NCBI GenBank assembly: GCA_027923505.1
Contig: BROI01000002.1
Location: 1,054,001 to 1,118,000 of the forward strand
Source: Mayamaea pseudoterrestris
Taxonomy: Eukaryota
Reading direction: 5' to 3'
DNA: 64,000 bases
The notes below the pieces were generated by a model. It made no database searches. It saw nothing but the letters and a program-made list of their open reading frames with translations, and was not told the origin of the DNA. A program made the translations under genes and the position numbers. Numbering within the stretch: the first letter of the stretch is position 1; the number at the start of each line of letters is the position of its first letter. This document shows, piece by piece, positions 1-54,692 of this stretch.

Positions 1-574
1 CAGTATCAAGACCTGCTAAAGTCGGAACAGTACTTGGAGATGTAGCAGCCGTTGGAGTGCTTGGCATGGGTATATTCGTAGTCGGTGCTGCAAATGAAGA
101 AGTGAATGTTAGTCTCGCAAGTGTAATTTGCATCGGCAGTATGTGGTGGGCGGTGGCGTCGTAATGCTACGTACCGGAAGGGGTTGCAGCTGGAGCTGGA
201 GCGTGTATAGGTTCTTCACACTCCATAACATGCTTAGGTGCTTTAAGCGAATGCACTTTGTCCTTGCCAAGCGGTGGCTCTTTTGGCTCCTTGAGAGATT
301 TCGGTGTTGGCGGGCAACCCTTCAATCCTTTAGAGGCACCCTTGACTGTTTTGGATGCACCTTTTACGGATGTGACCGCTACTTTCTTAAAACTCCCAAG
401 GGGCATACTGAAACTCATCATGCTCATGCTCATGTCTTGTTGAAGGCTCCGCACAGCTTGCTCATCGATCATTGAGAGCATGGCGTTTGCGCGAGACGAA
501 GAAGATACTAGCAGCAGCACCGCTATGGTCAGGATAGACATCGATAGATGAGGCAACATTCGTATACGCGCCAT
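1..574 (-). CDS. Secreted Lys/Pro/Ser/Thr-rich protein, silaffin-like or cell-wall candidate (3' end lies outside the window)
   Basis: Hydrophobic signal peptide (ILTIAVLLLVSSSSRA), RSL (RXL) motif, KXXK motifs. The ORF stop at 167 lies in a predicted GTACGT..CAG intron 174-88 with a CTAAC branch site; the spliced frame continues APTTNIPMPSTPTAATSPSTVPT to the window edge. Confidence 0.7.
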
Positions 575-32052: not shown

Positions 32053-35000
32053 ATGAAAGAAAAGGTTGAAGATAAAGTATCCACGGACGTCGGACAGGCG
32101 ACCATGGCGATTCCTGCCGTCGCTGATGCAAGTCATTTTCTCTTCGCCTTGTACACTGCTTTGTTTCTTTTATTCTATACTCTTGGTGTCATGTTTGGAG
32201 GACTAGAGATAAAGAGCGCCGCATCTACAGCTAAAGGAAAAAACAAGGATACCGAAGCAGCCTTGAGTAGCGACGCATCATCATCCTCGGCGACTGCACC
32301 TTCCTCGGCCTTTGGTTTTTTAAATAGCAGCAATGGAACGAGTACTGCTCCTGCACCGAGCGCGTTCTCCTTCATGAGTGAAGCAGACGAAAGCAGCCCT
32401 GTTACAGATGTAATGATTGCGATTGCTAGTGAAAGTGTTGAAACTGGAGGAGCAACTGCTGAAGGAGGAGCTTCGGCAGCATCGGCCTTCTCCTTTCTGT
32501 CATCTACCACGGAGCCAGCTGCAGCAGAAGCAAAACGTACGAGGAATGCAGCAAAGGAGTTTTCGTCAGATGAAGCTGCCTCTTCTGCCGGTTTTGGATT
32601 TTTGACGTCTTCAGCGACAAACATTCCGAGCCCGACCGAAACATCGAATGCGAACAACGATTCCATACCTCCACCACCTCCTCCAGCGGAAGACTTGCTC
32701 TCATCACCTACGATATCGTCGTCCTCATTTTCTGGAGCACCAGTGTTGGGATCTAGTATTGTTTTTGGACAGCAGGCAGTGGGCGGCAACAGTAAGACAA
32801 TAATTAAGCGAAGAAATCGTACAAACAAGATTGGACAAGGAACGCCAGCAGTTTCTTCGACAGGACTTCCCGAGCCAGCCGCAGTGACATTACCAGCACC
32901 GTCCTCTCTGGCGGATAATAATCAGCATATATTCAAATCTACCAGCAAGTCGAACATTTTAACAGCTGCGGAACAAGCGACGCAACGAGCTGAGCAATTT
33001 TTGCAAGCTGCGCAAACGACTACTGGTAGCAATGATCACGACATTGAAGATGATGACCGCAGTAGGTCCATTCGTTCTGTTCCATCCGATGATTCAGTAT
33101 TGCAAAAGGCAAAAGCAGCTGCCATGGAAGCGCAGGAAAAGATCATGGCCGACTCTGCTTCATCATCCAATGCATCGACTGGGAACAAGTACTTTGCCAG
33201 TCGAATTGGAGGACTGTTTCGACCACGCCAGAGTGAATCCGGATCGTCCGCCAACAGCAGTAGTCATGGAATTGGTACTAGCAATGGAAGTCATAATTTA
33301 AGGTCCAGCAGTTCGGCGTCAAGCATGGAATCTGGCGTTCATCACAAGCATCAGCAATCAGCAGTGCCTCGGTCCATTCTTCCACCGACGCAGCAGCAGC
33401 GCAAGCCGCCAATGGACGAGACCTCTAAGAGATCCGACAACATTATTGGTGCCGGAAGCATGAATTTTGTGCCGCCGCCAGTTCCCGACTTGGACCGCGC
33501 CATTTCTGCTCCTATCAATCTACAACCCCTATCGGCTCCGCACACGCCAGATCCATACGGTAATGCAATGGCCACCGCTCTAGCTCCGATACCAGCTCGC
33601 AGAAGACTCAAGACACCGACGGACCGCTTCCACGATATGCTGCAGGAATTCCGTGACAAGGTGATATCGTACATGGACCAAATTACGCGACTTCGTCAGC
33701 ATCGCTCTGGCCTGTTGGAAGAACGTTTTGTGACACTTGCGAAGGAACGTCTGGTTGTGCAGCAGATTCAGGCAGCTCAAGCGCAGCAGCAACTCGCGGC
33801 TGAGCAGGAAGATTTTGATTTGGCGGAGCTGCTGCAGACGGTGATACGAAACCATGAGCGCGAGCGCATCGAACTTGCAACAGTTCGTGACAGTATTGCC
33901 CAGGCGTTGGAGCAAGTTGACGACCAGCGACAACACATCATTGACGCCGTCACTATGGAGTTTTCTCGTATTCAATTGAAATTGGAGGAGTTTGAAAAGG
34001 AGCAAAACAGTCTAGAGTGCACACACGCGGCGGAACATGTGGCCAAGTTTACCATTGTGGCGAAGCAGCTCAGCACTGAGCAGGAGAGACTTAACCACGA
34101 TTTGAAGCATTTAGAACGAGACGCTAAGCTTGTGACGGAGGAGCGCAAGGAGTTAGAAGCGGCCATCTCGGAGCAAACAAGTGAGATTGAATTGATGCGA
34201 GATGACGCCAAGGTTAAACTCAAGACTGTACAGGAGGAGATCGAGGAACTGCGTAGGCAACTGGCCGCGAAGCAACAGACTGCTGCACAATTACGTACCG
34301 AGGCGGCTGGCCATGAGGAGGCAATCTTAAAGGTGCGCGTCAAGTTTGCTCGACAGCTTACGCGCGTGCAGCGGAAGGAAATGTCTGTCAAGGATGCCAG
34401 AGAAGAGTGGGAACAAGAGAAACAAACGTACGACCGAAACAAGGAAGAGCATGATAGGAAAATGACGGAGCATTCTGAGCAATTGCTGGCACAAGAGCAA
34501 CTGCGAGCGTCGCTCAGCAAGGAGATGGAACTGGCCGAAACATTTGGTGAAATAATTGCCAAGGAGGTCGGCCTTGGCTTCGTATCTAGTGATGACGAAG
34601 TCGAGAATGGTGACTTGGCGCAAATGCATACCGAAGTGGTGAAGTGTGAGGCGGCTGTAAGCGAGGCTAAGACAGTACTCAAAACTACTTCGGCAACCTT
34701 GAGCAACATGGAAGACGAGATCAAGACACTTGAAACGCGAATTCCCTTGCTAGAAGAGACCAAGAAGGAATGTGCAGCGAAGCGAGACTTCAAGGGTGCC
34801 GGCGTTGCCTCGAAGGAGATTAAAGAGGCGATTAGTCGTGTCAACGAATGTCGCGATGCCATTGACGACGTTCGCGCACGCCAAGTTTCGTCGGAGGAGA
34901 TTGTCGTGCAACTTGAGGAAGAACTTGCAGGAAAGCGTCTCATTGCACAGGAGTACGAGCTTGAAACGAACTTGGCTGTGATGGACCGTCTCGCTGATAA

Positions 35001-35967
35001 GATTAAACGCTTAATGTCGACGAAGGAAAACGTTTGCAGTAGTACTGATGATTTATCTGTCAAAGGTGTCGGTGCCTATGTTCTTCAAAGTCAGATCAAA
35101 GCTTTATACGCAGAAGGACATGCTCTTGGTGAAAAGTGTGGTGGCTGGAGCGAGCGCATGGCGAGTATAGGGTTCTCGAACGACATGAAAGAGTCGAACG
35201 CGAAGCTAGGCGCAGAAAGTGTTGCCGAATGTAGGCATTCTTCTCCAACGGCAGCAGACGGAGCACCGAGAATGGTCCATGAAGAAAAGGAAGCGTCAGA
35301 GCCTGTCAACCAAGACTCGATTAAAGAAAAACAAGCCAGGTATCGTGGGCTCGCAAGTCGCTTGGGTGCTGTAGAGTCTGACATTGAAGCAGCGGCGGAA
35401 GCTGAGGATTTTGAAAAGGCTGCGGAAATGCAGGAAGAGCTTGACAAACTGCTTGTGGAGTTACAAGGGCTAGATCTTACTGATGAAGAGATGGAGGCAG
35501 CCTTGGTAGATGGTGATGGACCAATAGATCCGTTGCCTGCCAAAAACGATGACGCGATGGAGTCGACTGTGAATCCAGATTTTCCAGAGGAGCCTACACA
35601 AGCGGAAGTGGACTCCATTGCTACATATAGCGACGAAGAAGGGCTTTCTTGCACCGAAAAGGAAGTTGCAGACGAACGGCAGCAAGAGGACCGGTCACTC
35701 GACGATACGGGCGGTGAAGAGACAACCAAAACCACGCCAACTGAAGTACATGCCTCATCAGTGGCAGCGGTTAATGAGGCGGAAGACTCGCCGGCAGTGA
35801 TGGCGAATGAGTCCGATACAAGGGACCCAGCTAAAGATACGTACGCAGCGATTGAGGCCGATAGTAGCGATGACTCGAAAGGTGAGACGGCTTCGCCTCC
35901 CGCCGAGGACGACGAACCTACGGTCGAGGGCGACGTTCATGAAGAAGATGTAGACAAAGACATTTAA
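32053..35967 (+). CDS. Large coiled-coil protein with UVR (UvrB/C)-like helical motifs and a disordered N-terminus
   Basis: 1304-aa ORF with extensive heptads; AAEQEDFDLAELLQ, AAKRDFKGAG and AAEAEDFEKAAEMQEEL are UVR-like motifs. The real start may be ATG 32191 (MFGGLEIK). Confidence 0.8.
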   Translation: MKEKVEDKVSTDVGQATMAIPAVADASHFLFALYTALFLLFYTLGVMFGGLEIKSAASTAKGKNKDTEAALSSDASSSSATAPSSAFGFLNSSNGTSTAPAPSAFSFMSEADESSPVTDVMIAIASESVETGGATAEGGASAASAFSFLSSTTEPAAAEAKRTRNAAKEFSSDEAASSAGFGFLTSSATNIPSPTETSNANNDSIPPPPPPAEDLLSSPTISSSSFSGAPVLGSSIVFGQQAVGGNSKTIIKRRNRTNKIGQGTPAVSSTGLPEPAAVTLPAPSSLADNNQHIFKSTSKSNILTAAEQATQRAEQFLQAAQTTTGSNDHDIEDDDRSRSIRSVPSDDSVLQKAKAAAMEAQEKIMADSASSSNASTGNKYFASRIGGLFRPRQSESGSSANSSSHGIGTSNGSHNLRSSSSASSMESGVHHKHQQSAVPRSILPPTQQQRKPPMDETSKRSDNIIGAGSMNFVPPPVPDLDRAISAPINLQPLSAPHTPDPYGNAMATALAPIPARRRLKTPTDRFHDMLQEFRDKVISYMDQITRLRQHRSGLLEERFVTLAKERLVVQQIQAAQAQQQLAAEQEDFDLAELLQTVIRNHERERIELATVRDSIAQALEQVDDQRQHIIDAVTMEFSRIQLKLEEFEKEQNSLECTHAAEHVAKFTIVAKQLSTEQERLNHDLKHLERDAKLVTEERKELEAAISEQTSEIELMRDDAKVKLKTVQEEIEELRRQLAAKQQTAAQLRTEAAGHEEAILKVRVKFARQLTRVQRKEMSVKDAREEWEQEKQTYDRNKEEHDRKMTEHSEQLLAQEQLRASLSKEMELAETFGEIIAKEVGLGFVSSDDEVENGDLAQMHTEVVKCEAAVSEAKTVLKTTSATLSNMEDEIKTLETRIPLLEETKKECAAKRDFKGAGVASKEIKEAISRVNECRDAIDDVRARQVSSEEIVVQLEEELAGKRLIAQEYELETNLAVMDRLADKIKRLMSTKENVCSSTDDLSVKGVGAYVLQSQIKALYAEGHALGEKCGGWSERMASIGFSNDMKESNAKLGAESVAECRHSSPTAADGAPRMVHEEKEASEPVNQDSIKEKQARYRGLASRLGAVESDIEAAAEAEDFEKAAEMQEELDKLLVELQGLDLTDEEMEAALVDGDGPIDPLPAKNDDAMESTVNPDFPEEPTQAEVDSIATYSDEEGLSCTEKEVADERQQEDRSLDDTGGEETTKTTPTEVHASSVAAVNEAEDSPAVMANESDTRDPAKDTYAAIEADSSDDSKGETASPPAEDDEPTVEGDVHEEDVDKDI

Positions 35968-36030
35968 CCTACGGTATGGCGTACAATATTTATTTTTGAC
36001 TGTAATAAATGATCATATAAATTTTTAAAG

Positions 36031-37038
36031 TCACGTCGTCGTATACGCCACTGCAGCTGCGTAACTAACGCTTGACTCGTGCACATTCTGGACTGGCAAG
36101 CTCTGCGCATAGCTGACAAAGCTGACCGTCATCAAGTCCTTGCTGTTATTGTCGTCATTAGCTGCAGCTACGGCGTGTAACCAAACCGCGACGGCGTTGC
36201 GTCCGCAAATGGTATTACGCGTCTCTGTCAGATATTGCGCAAAGGCACCAGGCTGCTGCAACTCAATGAGGCTCATGCCTCTCCTGTCCATTCGTCCAAT
36301 AAAAGTGTGAATGGGAATATCATTTGTAGTCGGCATCGGATTAAAACCAAACCGCGAGCCCCAGTGGCAAAAGTCGGTTGACACAACCGTGAGAACAGAC
36401 GGACGCGATACTACGCTAGCGAAGAGTCTTCCAAACGTTACAGAGTAAGCATCCGAGAGCTGACCAACCATGACTGGCAAAACATCAATCTCATGGTTTT
36501 GTTTGCAATCCCGAATAACTTTGGCCAAGAATGGAAACTGCATTTCACCCGAATGCTCGTGTTCATCCACTCGCTTGTTCATGGTCGTAACGAGGGAAGC
36601 CGACGTGGCTGTTGCCAGAATCTCTTGTCGCAGTGCGTCATTTACGACCAAATCTCCCAATGGTGTCTCAAGACGCGTCACTCCAGATACGGCGCATTGG
36701 TTGCTCATGGATACATGGTGCGAAGGGTGCAAGACAAGAATCGTCCGAATCGGCGTCAATGGATCAGCAAGTTCTTGAGCGACGTGGCGATACGAGTAAG
36801 CGGCAGTCGGACCCGAGTAGCTGTAACCAGCATGAGGACAAATGACAGCTCGTAGTCGTCGTTGCTTTGTGGTTCCTTCATTGTCGAGAGATTTATTCGC
36901 CTCGTCGGAAGCAGCATCTGCTAGAAAACCTGAAAGTTGCTGATCAAGTTCATCGGCCGAGTCGGAATACCAGCTTCCGGCATGATGAGCCTTGCGAATA
37001 TAGGATGGAATTGATGAAGACGACTGATGACTTCCCAT
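36031..37038 (-). CDS. MEMO1: MEMO1 / AmmeMemoRadiSam protein B homolog
   Basis: RKAHHAGSWY, PHAGYSYSG, HPSHH, DEHEHSGEMQFPF, STDFCHWG, NTICGRN, SSVSYA. Confidence 0.93.
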   Translation of the reverse strand: MGSHQSSSSIPSYIRKAHHAGSWYSDSADELDQQLSGFLADAASDEANKSLDNEGTTKQRRLRAVICPHAGYSYSGPTAAYSYRHVAQELADPLTPIRTILVLHPSHHVSMSNQCAVSGVTRLETPLGDLVVNDALRQEILATATSASLVTTMNKRVDEHEHSGEMQFPFLAKVIRDCKQNHEIDVLPVMVGQLSDAYSVTFGRLFASVVSRPSVLTVVSTDFCHWGSRFGFNPMPTTNDIPIHTFIGRMDRRGMSLIELQQPGAFAQYLTETRNTICGRNAVAVWLHAVAAANDDNNSKDLMTVSFVSYAQSLPVQNVHESSVSYAAAVAYTTT

Positions 37039-37248
37039 GCTGAAAGGTAAATGAAGGCATTAACAGTAAATGAGCGAACAAATTTGGAAACGGATCGCGA
37101 TGGCGAGAGCGTGACATGATTCGATGTCGCATCGGTTCACAAAAAAACCGACATGAACGAAATGCATGCCATTGTCGCAGCTGCTCAACGGCTATAGCGC
37201 TCCTCTCACAGTCAATACAATAACTACAACTCAATCTACAGCAGCAGC

Positions 37249-37959
37249 ATGTTTGGTGACGCTTGGAATCGAGTCAAAAATGAAGGCGCCAAGGCAAAAC
37301 TCCAAGCAGAATTGAAACTGTTAGACCGAGAGGTCAACAAGCGCCAAAAACTGTTTGGAGTCGACCTTTACGATTTACTTTCGCAGCAAGCGAAACTAGC
37401 ACCCGCTTTCATGTCCAAACTGCAAGCGCAAGTGAAAGAGCCGTATGATCAAGCGAAGCATGACATTACAAAGCTACAAATGGACCGATTGCATCTGCAG
37501 GAGCAGATTGACTTGGTACAATGCAATGCCGATCGAGCTAGACCGGCCTACACAACCAAGGGACACTTGATAAAGGCTGGACAAACAATCAAGGATACCG
37601 GAATTGAAGCAAAACTACAGGCTCAAGTGGTTCTACTGGATCGAAACATCAAAATGCGCAAGGAGACGTTTGGCGTTGATGTGTTTACGCTACTGCAAGC
37701 CAATCCGGAAGCGGCCAAGAATAACTTGATTGGTAACATGGCAGCGAAACTTTCAAGTCGAGAGCAGGAGATACAAAAATGTATCGAAAAGGCCAAGCAT
37801 GATGTAAGTAATACTGATTCCAAATCATGTCGCCTGCCGAAGCGAGACCCTCCCATCTTGTCTCTCATCCATTGCATATGACGACAGGTAACCTTTATCA
37901 TAAAAAAGAAGGAATACAAGGAGCGAGAAATCAAGGAACGAAGCTCTGGTACTTGGTAG
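37249..37959 (+). CDS. Hypothetical helical protein made of two homologous halves
   Basis: KAKLQAELKLLDREVNKRQKLFGVDLYDLL and EAKLQAQVVLLDRNIKMRKETFGVDVFTLL. Intron 37804-37887 (GTAAGT..CAG) gives a VTFIIKKKEYKEREIKERSSGTW* end. Confidence 0.78.
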
Positions 37960-38272
37960 CAAATGACGGTGGAAATGCAACCGCAATGCATGGTGCAAGG
38001 TAGGTGTTGTTTGTGCATCCAAACGAGTCTCATTAACTCCATGGCGACAGGCCAAGAGTCGTTTGTCCACTAGAGCACTGCAGTTACATGCCTTTATACA
38101 AAGTTGCTTATAAGTCTACAATGTTCATGCGTCATGTGGATTCTATACGCATCGAACGTCGTGGACGTGTTTAGTACAACGTCTGTGATCAGCATGGCTT
38201 TCATCCGCAAACGAATGCATCTACCATCTATGCAATAACATCCGTATCAGTACACAATCGTCTAGTTTGAAG

Positions 38273-50373: not shown

Positions 50374-51463
50374 TTACAGAGCCTTCATGCCCATGAACCC
50401 ACGCAATTGCTCAAAAATGACAAGTTGGAGTGTAGTCGTTGGCGCGAATCGACTCCAGATTGGCATAAAGCCGCGCCAGAAGGTCAGAGGACCTTCCTGT
50501 CGAATGATCTTCATGGCACAATCAACAGCGTTGTTGTAAATCTTGGCGTCCACTGGCTGGTTCATGAGTCGCGTACGAATCATGTCAAAGGGTGCGACGG
50601 TGCACGTCATGAAAAAGCCTGCCGTCACGGCCGAAAGAAACTGCGTAATCAACGAGCTCTTGTGTAATCCCGTCAGTTCGACCACGTAGCCTTTGGACTG
50701 ATCGTAAACTCCCATCTTTGTTCCGTTCAGCACCATGGCGCGCATAATGTTCGAGTCAATTCCGCGGTAAAATCCGCCAATGCCTTGGCCCCGGAATAGG
50801 TCGCGGCCAGTCTTCATAATGGAAGGCGTCTCGCGACCCCTAGACACCATCATTTGTGTCTTCAAAACATCAAAAGGATTTCCAGCGAGCGATCCAATTG
50901 CTCCAGCGGCACTACCCGCAAGAAATTTTTTGGCAAAGGTGGCATCCGATCCAGTTGCACCAAAGACAATCTTGATGGGCTCGTACAAACCGAGGCGCAA
51001 CGATGTGTACGATGCCTCTCGCAGCCAAGCTGCATTGACTCCCTTCCATAGCGATGTCATGCCTTCATCGCTGACAATTTTGCCGACCGTTCCAAACATG
51101 CCAAGCGATGAGTATTCCGATGAGATTTGAATGCGAGTCTGAAGAAAGAGCGAGAAGATTCGCGCCATGAGATTCTGTTTCACTCGTCAAGCGAAAGACA
51201 CTGCTATCGACGGCGCCCATCACACCGCCAAGTGAAACTTACTTTTACAACATCGATGGGATGAATGAAGGTGACTGTAATGACGGCGGCTGCGAAAAAG
51301 GAGCGAAAAGAATAGTAGAGGTACGTGTGTAAATGTGTGAGTATTAGAATTGCTTCTCAGACATGACCATCACTCCTTCATTCACTGCAAATTCCTTACC
51401 TGAACCTGCCATTCCAACCTGCGTGAGGAGTGAAGGAGCGGCTGCTGCTGGCGACGATGCCAT
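50374..51463 (-). CDS. Mitochondrial carrier (SLC25), oxoglutarate/dicarboxylate/UCP subgroup
   Basis: Three PX[DE]XX[KR] motifs (HPIDVVKTR, NPFDVLKTQ, APFDMIRTR), REASYTSLRLGLYEPIK, RAMVLN. Introns 51399-51290 and 51242-51139. Confidence 0.92.
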
Positions 51464-52015: not shown

Positions 52016-53272
52016 TCACGCAATTTCATTCACCATGTCGGACAAGACTTGTTCCATGGCTTGTTTAACCTGCTCGTCACTGACTTTACCGTCGCCATGT
52101 GCATCATCACCCGTCGTCGCGGTTGTCGTCTTGAGCAACTGGTAGGCTTCACCAAAGACTCGTTGCGCCGCTCGTCGCTGTCCAATCAACGACGCGTCAC
52201 TCAAGACTAGTTCGAACCGATGCATCGTCGGAACGTAGTTGACTGTAGGCGCTCTTCCTTCCAGCAAAACAACAACACCCTGCGCGGCCAAGACTTGTAG
52301 AGCCTTGGCGCAAATGAGAATGACTTCACCTTGAGTCGCTTCCGCAACGGTTGGAATGTTTTGTGAAACGACGGGGCTCTTCAAAAGCGTGTTTTGAATC
52401 TCGCTGACGCGGCCGACGTTTCGAATAAGAATGTCGAACGGTGTATTTGGTGTCGTATCTTCACCATTGCTCTTTGTCGTAATAGAAATTTGTTCCATGA
52501 ACACTGTCAACTGCTCCTTGGTCAAAACATCAGCGAGAGGAATCTTTTGCTCCTCGGCATAGCTAGTTGCAAGTAGCGTTAGCGCCCGAAAGACATTGCC
52601 GTTGCTCCAAGTGACAACCGACTGCCGCTGGTGCGAAAGCTTGTCCACCAACTGAGCGACGGTCGTTCCTTTGCCAGTACCTGAGCGACCGACAATGACA
52701 ATGACGTATCCAGAGCTCGTTCCATCGGATGCCGTACTGCCATGATGATTCTCGTTGTTCGTAGCTTGAACATGATCCAGTATGAGGTTCGCTACTTGCT
52801 CGGGCGTCTTGCCCAAAACGTCAATGGCAACGTATGGCGCAGGCACCAGATTTGCATCAATGACTCCCTTGGCTCTTGCAATATTGATTCCAGCTTGAAG
52901 CTTTTCGTCGTCTTCATTGTCGCGCGACTCCGTCAGAGCGCCTTCAAACTGAGCGAGTTTGATAAAGTCGGGGTTTTGTTGGAAGCTTTGAATGACAGCC
53001 GAGGATGTTTCGGCATTTTGAAGTGAGAGGAGCGCGAAGGAAACGGTTCCTTTTGCGGCCTCACTAGAATTTAAATTCGACATGCCTTTGTAAATTGGAT
53101 AATGAGTCAAATGATATACAGGTCGTAGGCCCTTGGTGGCTTGAGGACAGACTCGTCGAAGCGAGGACGAGTGGCTCATGGTCCTGGTGCAAATTGACCG
53201 ACGAGTAGTGCGAATAACGCTACGACCCATTTCTTCAGCCATCGATTCAACGCGATGGAGGAGACGCACCAT
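52016..53272 (-). CDS. Cytidylate-kinase-like P-loop NMP kinase, apparently circularly permuted; Arg/Ser-rich presequence
   Basis: VIVIVGRSGTGKGT, SNGNVFRALTL, VLLEGR and GQRRAAQR follow Cmk motif order, but the Cmk C-terminal motifs appear N-terminal to the P-loop. Confidence 0.78.
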   Translation of the reverse strand: MVRLLHRVESMAEEMGRSVIRTTRRSICTRTMSHSSSLRRVCPQATKGLRPVYHLTHYPIYKGMSNLNSSEAAKGTVSFALLSLQNAETSSAVIQSFQQNPDFIKLAQFEGALTESRDNEDDEKLQAGINIARAKGVIDANLVPAPYVAIDVLGKTPEQVANLILDHVQATNNENHHGSTASDGTSSGYVIVIVGRSGTGKGTTVAQLVDKLSHQRQSVVTWSNGNVFRALTLLATSYAEEQKIPLADVLTKEQLTVFMEQISITTKSNGEDTTPNTPFDILIRNVGRVSEIQNTLLKSPVVSQNIPTVAEATQGEVILICAKALQVLAAQGVVVLLEGRAPTVNYVPTMHRFELVLSDASLIGQRRAAQRVFGEAYQLLKTTTATTGDDAHGDGKVSDEQVKQAMEQVLSDMVNEIA

Positions 53273-53382: not shown

Positions 53383-54692
53383 ATGACAACTTGCGCGTCA
53401 CCGTCCTGCACAAACACGACGGTCGCCAAGCTGGCTTGTCCAAAATGCATTCAACTTGGATTGCCACCAACATTCTTTTGCTCGCAAGATTGCTTCAAGG
53501 CCAACTACAACGTTCACAAGCAGATTCATGCATTGGCCAAGACAATTAAAAATAGTTCCGGCGACGATGGAATCACGGCTCCGCTCGACGCGCCACTCGA
53601 ACAAAAACTGGCTCCTCCAGAGTGGGCACATAATTACTCCTTCACTGGAGACTTGCGACCGACTCGATTGTCGCCTCGCCGGGCTGTTCCAGCCAGTATT
53701 CGAAAACCAGATTACGCATCTGATTCAACTGGCCGCAGTGAGTCGGAGGAACGGGACAAGCGGAGTGGAGCCTTTATTCCGGTTTATACGCCGGACGAAC
53801 TAGACGCCGAGCTTGGATTGCGACAAGTCAATCGCATGGGACGACAAGTACTGGATCTTGCGGGAAGAGCATTGAAACCTGGCGTCACGACGGATGAGAT
53901 TGACCGCATTGTTCACGAGGCATGCTTGGAACGAGACTGCTACCCGTCGCCTTTGAACTACTACAACTTTCCCAAGAGCTTGTGCATTAGTGTGAACGAA
54001 GTCATTTGTCATGGCATCCCTGACTATAGAGAGATTAAAGATGGAGGTCAGTTGGTCTTGTTTGCGAGGGACGGCGGAAGTGATACTTGAGGATGCGCGA
54101 CTCTTGCGTTCCATGCAACCGTTTTACACTTCACACTCACTCTTTCCATACCTTTACAGACATTGTCAATTTAGACATTTCCGTCTACAATCGCGGCGGA
54201 TTTCATTCCGATTTGAACGAAACATACATGGTGGGATCCGTTGACGAGGATGGCAAGCGGCTCGTCAAGACTGCCTTTGACTGCCTGGCAGCCGCCATGC
54301 ATCTCGTCAAGCCCGGCACCTTGTATCGCGACTTGGGCACGGTCATTGAGCGAACTGCCAAGTCCAACCAATGCTCCGTCGTCAGAACATACTGCGGACA
54401 TGGCATTGGTTCGCTCTTTCACACGACACCAAACATTCCGCACTATGCCAAGAACAAGGCCAAGGGCACCATGAAGGCTGGCCACATTTTCACAATTGAG
54501 CCAATGATTAACCTTGGCAGTCATGTTGATCGAACGTGGGATGACAACTGGACGAGCGTCACCAAGGATGGTCAACGTTCGGCGCAGTTTGAGCATACCA
54601 TTCTCGTGACGGACAGTGGCTACGATATATTAACGCAACGAGAAAATGAACCAATCATGATGTGGAACGAGGAGTTGAATACTAGATTTTAG
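53383..54692 (+). CDS. MAP1: Methionine aminopeptidase 1 (type I with N-terminal zinc finger)
   Basis: CASPSC...LACPKC...FCSQDCFK zinc finger, [55 protein letters not shown]. Intron 54047-54159. Confidence 0.95.

Follow-up and report, generated by a model that had tools for sequence, protein, structure and literature searches.

The gene at positions 52016-53272 on the reverse strand of the window (the whole 64-kb stretch of DNA that was analysed) most probably encodes a naturally circularly permuted relative of the bacterial-type cytidylate kinase (Cmk), which, judging from its sequence and predicted structure, would be an active ATP-dependent phosphotransferase. In this explanation, the best we can offer, the part with which a normal Cmk ends, namely the LID helix with its R-D-x-x-D motif, strand beta5 and the last helix, would be the first to be encoded (aa ~101-175). 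It would be followed by a low-complexity linker (aa 176-188) that ties the former C-terminus to the former N-terminus, and then by the P-loop core (aa 189-386). The new chain ends would lie inside the LID region, each carrying extra helices (aa 79-97 and 399-417). In the working enzyme, the P-loop would bind ATP, and a nucleoside monophosphate (NMP) would be held by its phosphate and ribose through R229, R340, R117 and D121, with F228 stacked on its base; the N-terminal helix would act as the LID, closing over the site.

Gene structure and domain order

The gene is a single uninterrupted frame of 418 codons plus a stop, opening with ATG (Table 1). In-frame methionines occur at residues 1, 11, 15, 32 and 64, and the database protein P0002 begins at Met32. 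Alignments with homologues start at about residues 72-80 and cover the frame from residue ~72 to 418. The putative organellar presequence proposed by a sequence-only reading of this DNA would lie in residues 1-71. The divergently transcribed methionine aminopeptidase gene has its ATG only 110 nt upstream of Met1, and its split near position 54090 is presumably an intron. The genes flanking the kinase-like frame are eukaryotic.

All motifs quoted by the sequence-only reading occur where it had placed them in the 418-residue frame, and the chain does end soon after QRRAAQR, with 47 residues left. That reading had set these motifs against the layout of bacterial Cmk, and what it stated of the latter is accurate: the P-loop lies near the N-terminus (residues 12-20 of the E. 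coli K-12 product), and the E. coli C-terminal string that it quoted matches the K-12 cmk translation exactly. The window protein departs from this canonical order, with its P-loop at aa 195-203 and an RDxxD motif, a strand and a helix ahead of it at aa 117-175.

Table 1 Features of the kinase-like protein and of its neighbours in the window (residues of the 418-aa protein; E and H, strands and helices in model numbering)
Feature	Residues (aa)	Position	Strand	Remarks
Type-1 methionine aminopeptidase gene		53383-54689	+	Neighbour; zf-C6H2 + Peptidase_M24
N-terminal extension	1-71	53060..53272	-	Basic, Ser-rich, non-conserved; absent from many homologues
Two short family-specific helices, 'QNAETSxAII' stretch	79-97	52982..53038	-	Putative new N-terminus; model helices H8-13, H16-26; conservation
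Long helix, putative Cmk LID helix equivalent	101-134	52871..52972	-	F103, R117, D118, D121 invariant
ESRDNEDDEK	115-124	52901-52930	-	N-terminal to P-loop
R117-D121 motif	117-121	52910-52924	-	R117, D118, D121 on E. coli Cmk R181, D182, D185; K124 on R188
NLVPAPYVAIDVLGKTPEQVANLIL	141-165	52778-52852	-	N-terminal to P-loop
Sole N-domain beta-strand	148-151	52820..52831	-	Putative Cmk beta5 equivalent (E. coli 'ALVLDS'); model E77-80
Helix	157-175	52748..52804	-	Putative equivalent of last Cmk helix
N/H/S/G low-complexity linker	176-188 (N/H/S/G-rich ~170-188)	52709..52747	-	Lower pLDDT; length varies among homologues
Cmk-like kinase core	189-386	52115..52708	-	beta1 through RR-motif helix; hhalign, Foldseek, VIA
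P-loop GRSGTGKGT	195-203	52664..52690	-	K201 invariant
SNGNVFRALTL	223-233	52574..52606	-	Counterpart of Cmk D35-S36-G37-x-x-Y40-R41; N224, F228, R229 invariant
beta-Hairpin insert of NMP-binding domain	262-283	52424..52489	-	Strands E191-195, E208-212; aligned to Cmk 'LDVRF...LEVIL'
Q314 codon	314	52331..52333	-	Invariant 43/43; placed by hhalign on Cmk Arg110, a cytosine contact
LLEGR	336-340	52253..52267	-	R340 invariant, = Cmk R131; next residue (D132 position) variable
QRRAAQR	365-371	52160..52180	-	R366, R367 on Cmk R157, R158
Family-specific helix	399-417	52022..52078	-	Putative new C-terminus; no counterpart in native-order Cmk
Mitochondrial carrier gene		50377-51183	-	Neighbour

The kinase core and bacterial-type Cmk

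Against a Cmk profile built from 113 aligned sequences, all from proteobacterial (Pseudomonadota) loci, the kinase part of the family gave an hhalign match (Prob 96.9, E 1.8e-10). Here SNGNVFR falls on DSGAIYR, EGR on DGR and the RR pair on R157-R158, and the hairpin insert lines up with that of Cmk. We modelled aa 72-418 with AlphaFold2 from an alignment of 43 diverse family members (A1), which is also the basis of our conservation counts, and obtained a pLDDT of 91.7 and a pTM of 0.87. Foldseek ranked Cmk chains in places 1-19 for this model (best E 9.2e-5), and Cmk likewise took the top 17 VIA rows, with APS, dNMP and thymidylate kinases below it. In an independent scan of 48,161 PDB representatives, Cmk chains filled the top five places, and none of these representatives fits the full native-order topology of the model better than Cmk. 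The model also contains the Cmk-specific beta-hairpin insert in its NMP-binding domain, which hhalign aligns to the E. coli insert. By homology and by predicted fold, we assign the kinase core to the Cmk superfamily.

Curated models and single-sequence searches gave weaker matches. The protein missed the gathering cut-off of PF02224 (15.4 bits vs 26, over profile positions 1-73 of 211; 15.9 bits for the kinase part alone) and the cut-off of the (d)CMP kinase equivalog TIGR00017 (15.2 bits vs 135.55, positions 3-85 of 217). A tandem homologue, P0007, reached 36.8 bits against PF02224, with a best stretch spanning only positions 3-44. Searches with the single sequence against Pfam, NCBIfam and the PDB (phmmer) returned P-loop-level matches only, as did hmmsearch of the PDB with the family profile. 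With ABC transporters and FtsY standing above Cmk, we set these searches aside.

The N-terminal domain and the Cmk C-terminal segment

In native order, VIA aligns the window model only from residues 115-118 to 287-311, with Cmk from its start to residue 145-181 (Z 7.1-10.0 over 134-162 residues). The kinase part of the model taken alone is without beta5 and without the LID contacts, both common to every Cmk. The sequence-only reading had held that its proposal would fall if the C-terminal tail completed the core sheet in normal order, or if the N-terminal segment failed to align with the Cmk C-terminus. The tail of the window model does not do so: it consists of two helices, with no strand after beta4 (E280-285 in model numbering; aa 351-356). 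The sole strand outside the kinase part belongs to the ~100-aa N-terminal domain (N-domain; E77-80 in model numbering), where a helix follows it. The N-terminal segment, in turn, does align with the Cmk C-terminus, in profile-profile and in three-dimensional comparison.

An N-domain profile of 43 sequences found its best match in Cmk 168-223, with a score of 22.2 and a P of 0.0045 at an hhalign probability of only 7.8. The alignment puts R117-D118-x-x-D121 on R181-D182-x-x-D185, and matches the strand and helix that follow to beta5 and the final helix. When the columns of the N-domain alignment were shuffled 150 times, scores averaged 12.1 (sd 2.0) with a maximum of 18.1, and 0/150 reached 22.2; the reversed alignment scored 14.0 against the Cmk profile. 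A profile from 11 tandem rows only gave a P of 0.038. Examined separately, the kinase part matches Cmk by hhalign and the N-domain matches best on Cmk 168-223; the N-domain alone had no Pfam match at E<=10. The sequence support for homology of the N-domain to Cmk is modest.

It could be argued from these data that a C-terminally truncated Cmk-like kinase has been joined to an unrelated N-terminal accessory domain, whose RDxxD motif and strand-helix unit arose by chance. Such a view can draw on the low hhalign probability and the empty Pfam search, on the pairwise similarity of the N-domain to Cmk, which is non-significant (aa 109-140 vs Cmk 171-204, BLASTP E 5.2), and on a collinear profile in which a kinase domain precedes an N-domain (K1+N2, described below), whose hhalign score against Cmk was 61.9, no gain over the 62.1 of the kinase domain alone. 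We nevertheless think it quite unlikely, given that the best N-domain match is exactly the Cmk 168-223 stretch, with invariant residues falling on R181 and D185 and a score equalled by no shuffle, and that the truncated kinase would be left without beta5 and LID contacts present in every Cmk. The natural de-permuted fragment considered next also speaks against chance.

A natural tandem homologue as a de-permuted chain

Homologues of ~620-715 aa are N-K-N-K tandems, in which an N-domain (N) and a kinase domain (K) each occur twice. As de-permuted test sequence we took L116:497-1426, unaltered, from a metagenome-collection contig that encodes a tandem protein 99% identical to P0007; in this stretch N-domain 2 comes directly after kinase domain 1 (K1+N2). 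This is a homologue and not the window protein itself, being 39% identical to the query by BLASTP over 83% of the query. Its alignment (A2) comprises the L116 stretch with tandem and single-unit relatives, and is 11-12 rows deep in the N2 part. The AlphaFold2 model of K1+N2 had a pLDDT of 88.4 and a pTM of 0.79, with values below 50 only in the linker between the units.

When K1+N2 was compared with the PDB, Cmk again filled the top 17 VIA rows, at Z 12.9-15.9 and with 184-216 residues aligned. The alignments extend over the Cmk chains from their first residues to their last. Individual matches include 2cmk (Z 14.4, 212/221 residues, chain 3..223), 1q3t (Z 15.3, 216/223) and 4die_D (Z 15.9, 187/200). 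Relative to the native-order alignment of the window model, Z rose by ~5-6 and ~50 more residues were aligned, and the best Foldseek E improved from 9.2e-5 to 6.5e-7, with alignments spanning ~307 columns; the structural evidence consists throughout of AlphaFold2 models, from a method whose training included solved Cmk structures. Since K1+N2 folded alone aligns to whole Cmk chains, the N-domain is best equated with the Cmk C-terminal segment, and in predicted structure it can occupy that segment's place. The central claim of the sequence-only reading, that the Cmk fold has been circularly permuted with the cut in the LID, is supported by the profile-profile comparisons together with the K1+N2 model of this homologue.

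Family distribution and domain order

A sequence search with the window protein yielded 1010 matches among 8000 scored candidates, and an exhaustive search returned 472 clusters at 50% identity, of which 129 lie at E<=1e-30. The family is large and eukaryotic, with members in diatoms, a dinoflagellate and probably haptophytes. Named diatom members come from Nitzschia, Seminavis, Epithemia and Cylindrotheca, in addition to MMETSP transcriptomes; a tandem member is represented by one transcript assigned by taxon id to the dinoflagellate Gymnodinium catenatum, and Haptophyta is the commonest phylum of a sister cluster in Atlas. A cluster look-up of ten distant members yielded no further names. 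The source annotations read 'cytidylate kinase' for some members and 'hypothetical' for others.

The order of N-domain, linker and P-loop kinase domain recurs in the 43 aligned members. Invariant columns of A1 comprise F103, R117, D118 and D121 in the N-domain block, and the P-loop, N224, G225, F228, R229, Q314, E338-G339-R340, G364 and R366 in the kinase block. The shared order, for which the sequence-only reading had suggested a survey of protist homologues, is seen more widely: among 252 fetched proteins carrying SNG[ND]xFR, 229 have an RDxxD upstream, and the remaining 23 are mostly N-terminally truncated. We also searched shorter proteins for kinase-only forms and obtained 190 matches. 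A separate canonical or split kinase-only form was rejected, as each of the eight entries inspected starts within the P-loop or directly behind it, which marks them as truncated gene calls.

That gene callers yield such truncated K-only fragments, and that tandem forms exist, lends some colour to the idea that the order itself is an artefact, produced by a mis-called gene model or by a mis-assembly that cut a tandem Cmk array out of register. This is very hard to credit. The window frame is uninterrupted and bounded by a stop and by neighbouring genes, and tblastn with E. coli Cmk, the window protein (P0001) and the family member P0056 detected no second Cmk-like piece within the 64 kb. The N-then-K order moreover recurs in the 43 aligned members, some of them from MMETSP transcriptome assemblies and metagenome-collection contigs, and the tandem proteins, because they read N-K-N-K, are duplications of the permuted unit.

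Active site and phosphate acceptor

Passages of a report on Cmk describe Arg41 and Arg131 as binding the acceptor phosphate, Tyr40 as stacking on the base, Asp185 and Arg188 as contacting the nucleotide from a segment that orders upon binding, and Arg110, Asp132 and Ser36 as bonding to cytosine (PMC3603445). According to the same passages, R110A and R188A abolish the activity of the Yersinia enzyme, and R131A is also inactive (PMC3603445). In our family, the equivalents of Cmk K18, Y40 (as Phe), R41, R131, R157, R181 and D185 are invariant (43/43). Arg181 of Cmk we take to be a ribose contact. By the hhalign mapping, the phosphate, ribose and stacking counterparts R229, R340, R117, D121 and F228 are unchanged in every one of the 43 members.

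The base pocket looks different. Asn occupies the Cmk S36 position in all 43 members; Gln occupies the R110 position, again in 43/43, in a mapping that adjoins an hhalign gap and is less secure; the D132 position is variable (Glu in 17, Ala in 10, Lys in 5, others in the rest); and the R188 position is Lys in 28, Arg in 2 and another residue in 13. As all four cytosine-contacting positions are altered, the acceptor may not be CMP.

The changes at 4/4 of these positions would also suit a permuted, Cmk-derived protein that is no longer a nucleotide kinase, be it a pseudoenzyme, an ATPase or a kinase of a non-nucleotide substrate. The heterogeneity of the fusion partners points the same way: a Pfam scan of 15 long homologues found APH phosphotransferase, PTP-like phytase, DUF2470, SH3_3 and a faint protein-kinase match, once each, and no Pfam domain in 10/15. 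Since merged gene models may account for some of these fusions, we rejected them as evidence on function. A loss of nucleotide kinase activity seems unlikely to us, in view of the P-loop Lys, the phosphate-binding Arg pair, the R157 equivalent of the RR pair, the ribose-contacting Arg and Asp, and the stacking aromatic that 43/43 members retain; such a pattern of invariance is expected of an enzyme still binding ATP and a ribonucleoside 5'-phosphate. From conservation and the models, we infer instead an active ATP-dependent NMP kinase with a re-modelled base pocket, for which (d)CMP or UMP is possible as acceptor. CMP kinase activity of the family is doubtful; the acceptor may be CMP, dCMP or UMP, and another base is about equally likely.

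Discussion

In the study of protein folding, engineered permutants of adenylate kinase have served as a classic model. The open full-text literature that we searched held no report of a natural circular permutation of Cmk or of any NMP kinase, and no paper on the algal permuted Cmk-like family. In the accessible part of a general paper treating cytidylate kinase, permutation concerns fold groups only, and none of the papers retrieved on circularly permuted P-loop kinases concerns NMP kinases, to judge by titles and abstracts. What the profiles and models support is a natural permutation of Cmk that extends through a family and goes with a changed base pocket.

A bolder proposal, which we offer tentatively and which is somewhat more apt to be wrong than right, is that a bacterial-type Cmk gave rise, through circular permutation, to a protist-wide family whose acceptor then changed, making it a kinase of undescribed specificity for an NMP or a nucleotide-like metabolite. 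In that case the phosphate and ribose contacts would have stayed invariant as the cytosine contacts were replaced, mostly by invariant residues (Asn, Gln), and the termini and extra helices placed in the LID could gate its closure. The N-K-N-K tandems of today would then show at first hand the duplication route through which permutations come about and can be undone.

The permuted Cmk-like architecture that we favour would matter in several ways: (i) Fixation of a permutation. The rearrangement appears to be fixed across a whole family, in ecologically dominant phytoplankton, and its tandem members may offer a natural system in which to study permutation by duplication. (ii) Annotation. Pfam and NCBIfam have no model of the permuted family, and pipelines say 'hypothetical' or, from P-loop similarity alone, 'cytidylate kinase'. 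Recognising the permutation would explain the failure of the curated models, and a correct domain map for annotation would follow from it. (iii) Metabolic reconstruction. Since the base pocket is unlike that of a true Cmk, reconstructions of diatom pyrimidine salvage that count the gene as a CMP kinase may be wrong.

Bacterial-type Cmk (PF02224/TIGR00017; 2cmk, 1kdo, 1q3t, 4die, 2h92, 7l4a) supplied the top structural matches in every structure search. It has in common with the algal family the P-loop GxSGxGKGT, the NMP motif in which Arg follows an aromatic residue, the beta-hairpin insert, the (D/E)GR motif, the RR helix, and the LID helix with R-D-x-x-D, beta5 and final helix. Unlike Cmk, the algal family encodes the equivalent of Cmk 168-223 first, carries additional helices at its two new chain ends, has a longer LID helix, and differs in its base pocket, where Ser36 is replaced by Asn and Arg110 by Gln, Asp132 is variable and Arg188 is mostly Lys. 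If the algal family uses CMP or UMP as acceptor, its reaction would be of the kind carried out by eukaryotic UMP-CMP kinase, a member of the adenylate-kinase family (PF00406). That enzyme, however, represents a separate NMP-kinase family with canonical order and without the Cmk-type insert; the matches observed to it were only P-loop-level (7e9v, E 0.29; ADK below cut-off). Circularly permuted P-loop GTPases form the YlqF/YawG/RsgA class. Like the algal family, they have a P-loop NTPase fold that was circularly permuted in nature and is kept so across a whole family, but they belong to another P-loop class, with reordered GTPase G-motifs, and are not NMP kinases, so that homology between the two exists only at the level of the fold class.

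Genomic context of the kinase ORF

Two genes flank the permuted kinase ORF (window 52016-53272, minus strand). The coding sequence of the methionine aminopeptidase is split over two overlapping ORFs in different frames, which points to a short intron near 54090. Only 110 nt separate this gene's ATG from the Met1 codon of the kinase ORF, which is read from the opposite strand. The mitochondrial carrier gene lies downstream on the same strand as the kinase ORF and, since its listed ORF begins with GTG, its 5' part is probably located in another exon.

Genes flanking the kinase ORF
Gene	Window position	Strand	Domains
Type-1 methionine aminopeptidase	53383-54689	+	zf-C6H2 + Peptidase_M24
Mitochondrial carrier family protein	50377-51183	-	three Mito_carr repeats

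Elsewhere in the window, a strong bias towards purines marks positions 34001-38000: the GC skew is 0.19 and the AT skew 0.23 in 34001-36000, and the AT skew is 0.15 in 36001-38000, values far exceeding those in the remainder. A long coding region of repetitive or low-complexity sequence may lie here.

Possible fusions and tandem duplication of the permuted unit

In the homologues P0164, P0178 and P0156, the permuted kinase unit is joined to an APH-type phosphotransferase, a PTP-like phytase domain or DUF2470. Each of these combinations is a single case, and they may represent merged gene models or real fusions.

Tandem homologues, in which the N-domain and the P-loop kinase domain (N-K) are repeated as N-K-N-K, occur in several lineages (P0006, P0007, P0016, P0021 and P0022; fetched loci L116-L120). 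Together with the close likeness, judged by eye, between both repeats of one protein, this distribution suggests that the permuted unit has been duplicated repeatedly and recently. In Epithemia clementina, the locus tags of the family members P0059 and P0076 (ACA910_012225 and ACA910_012226) are consecutive and their longest-contig size is identical (819,934 bp), so the two are probably adjacent paralogues.
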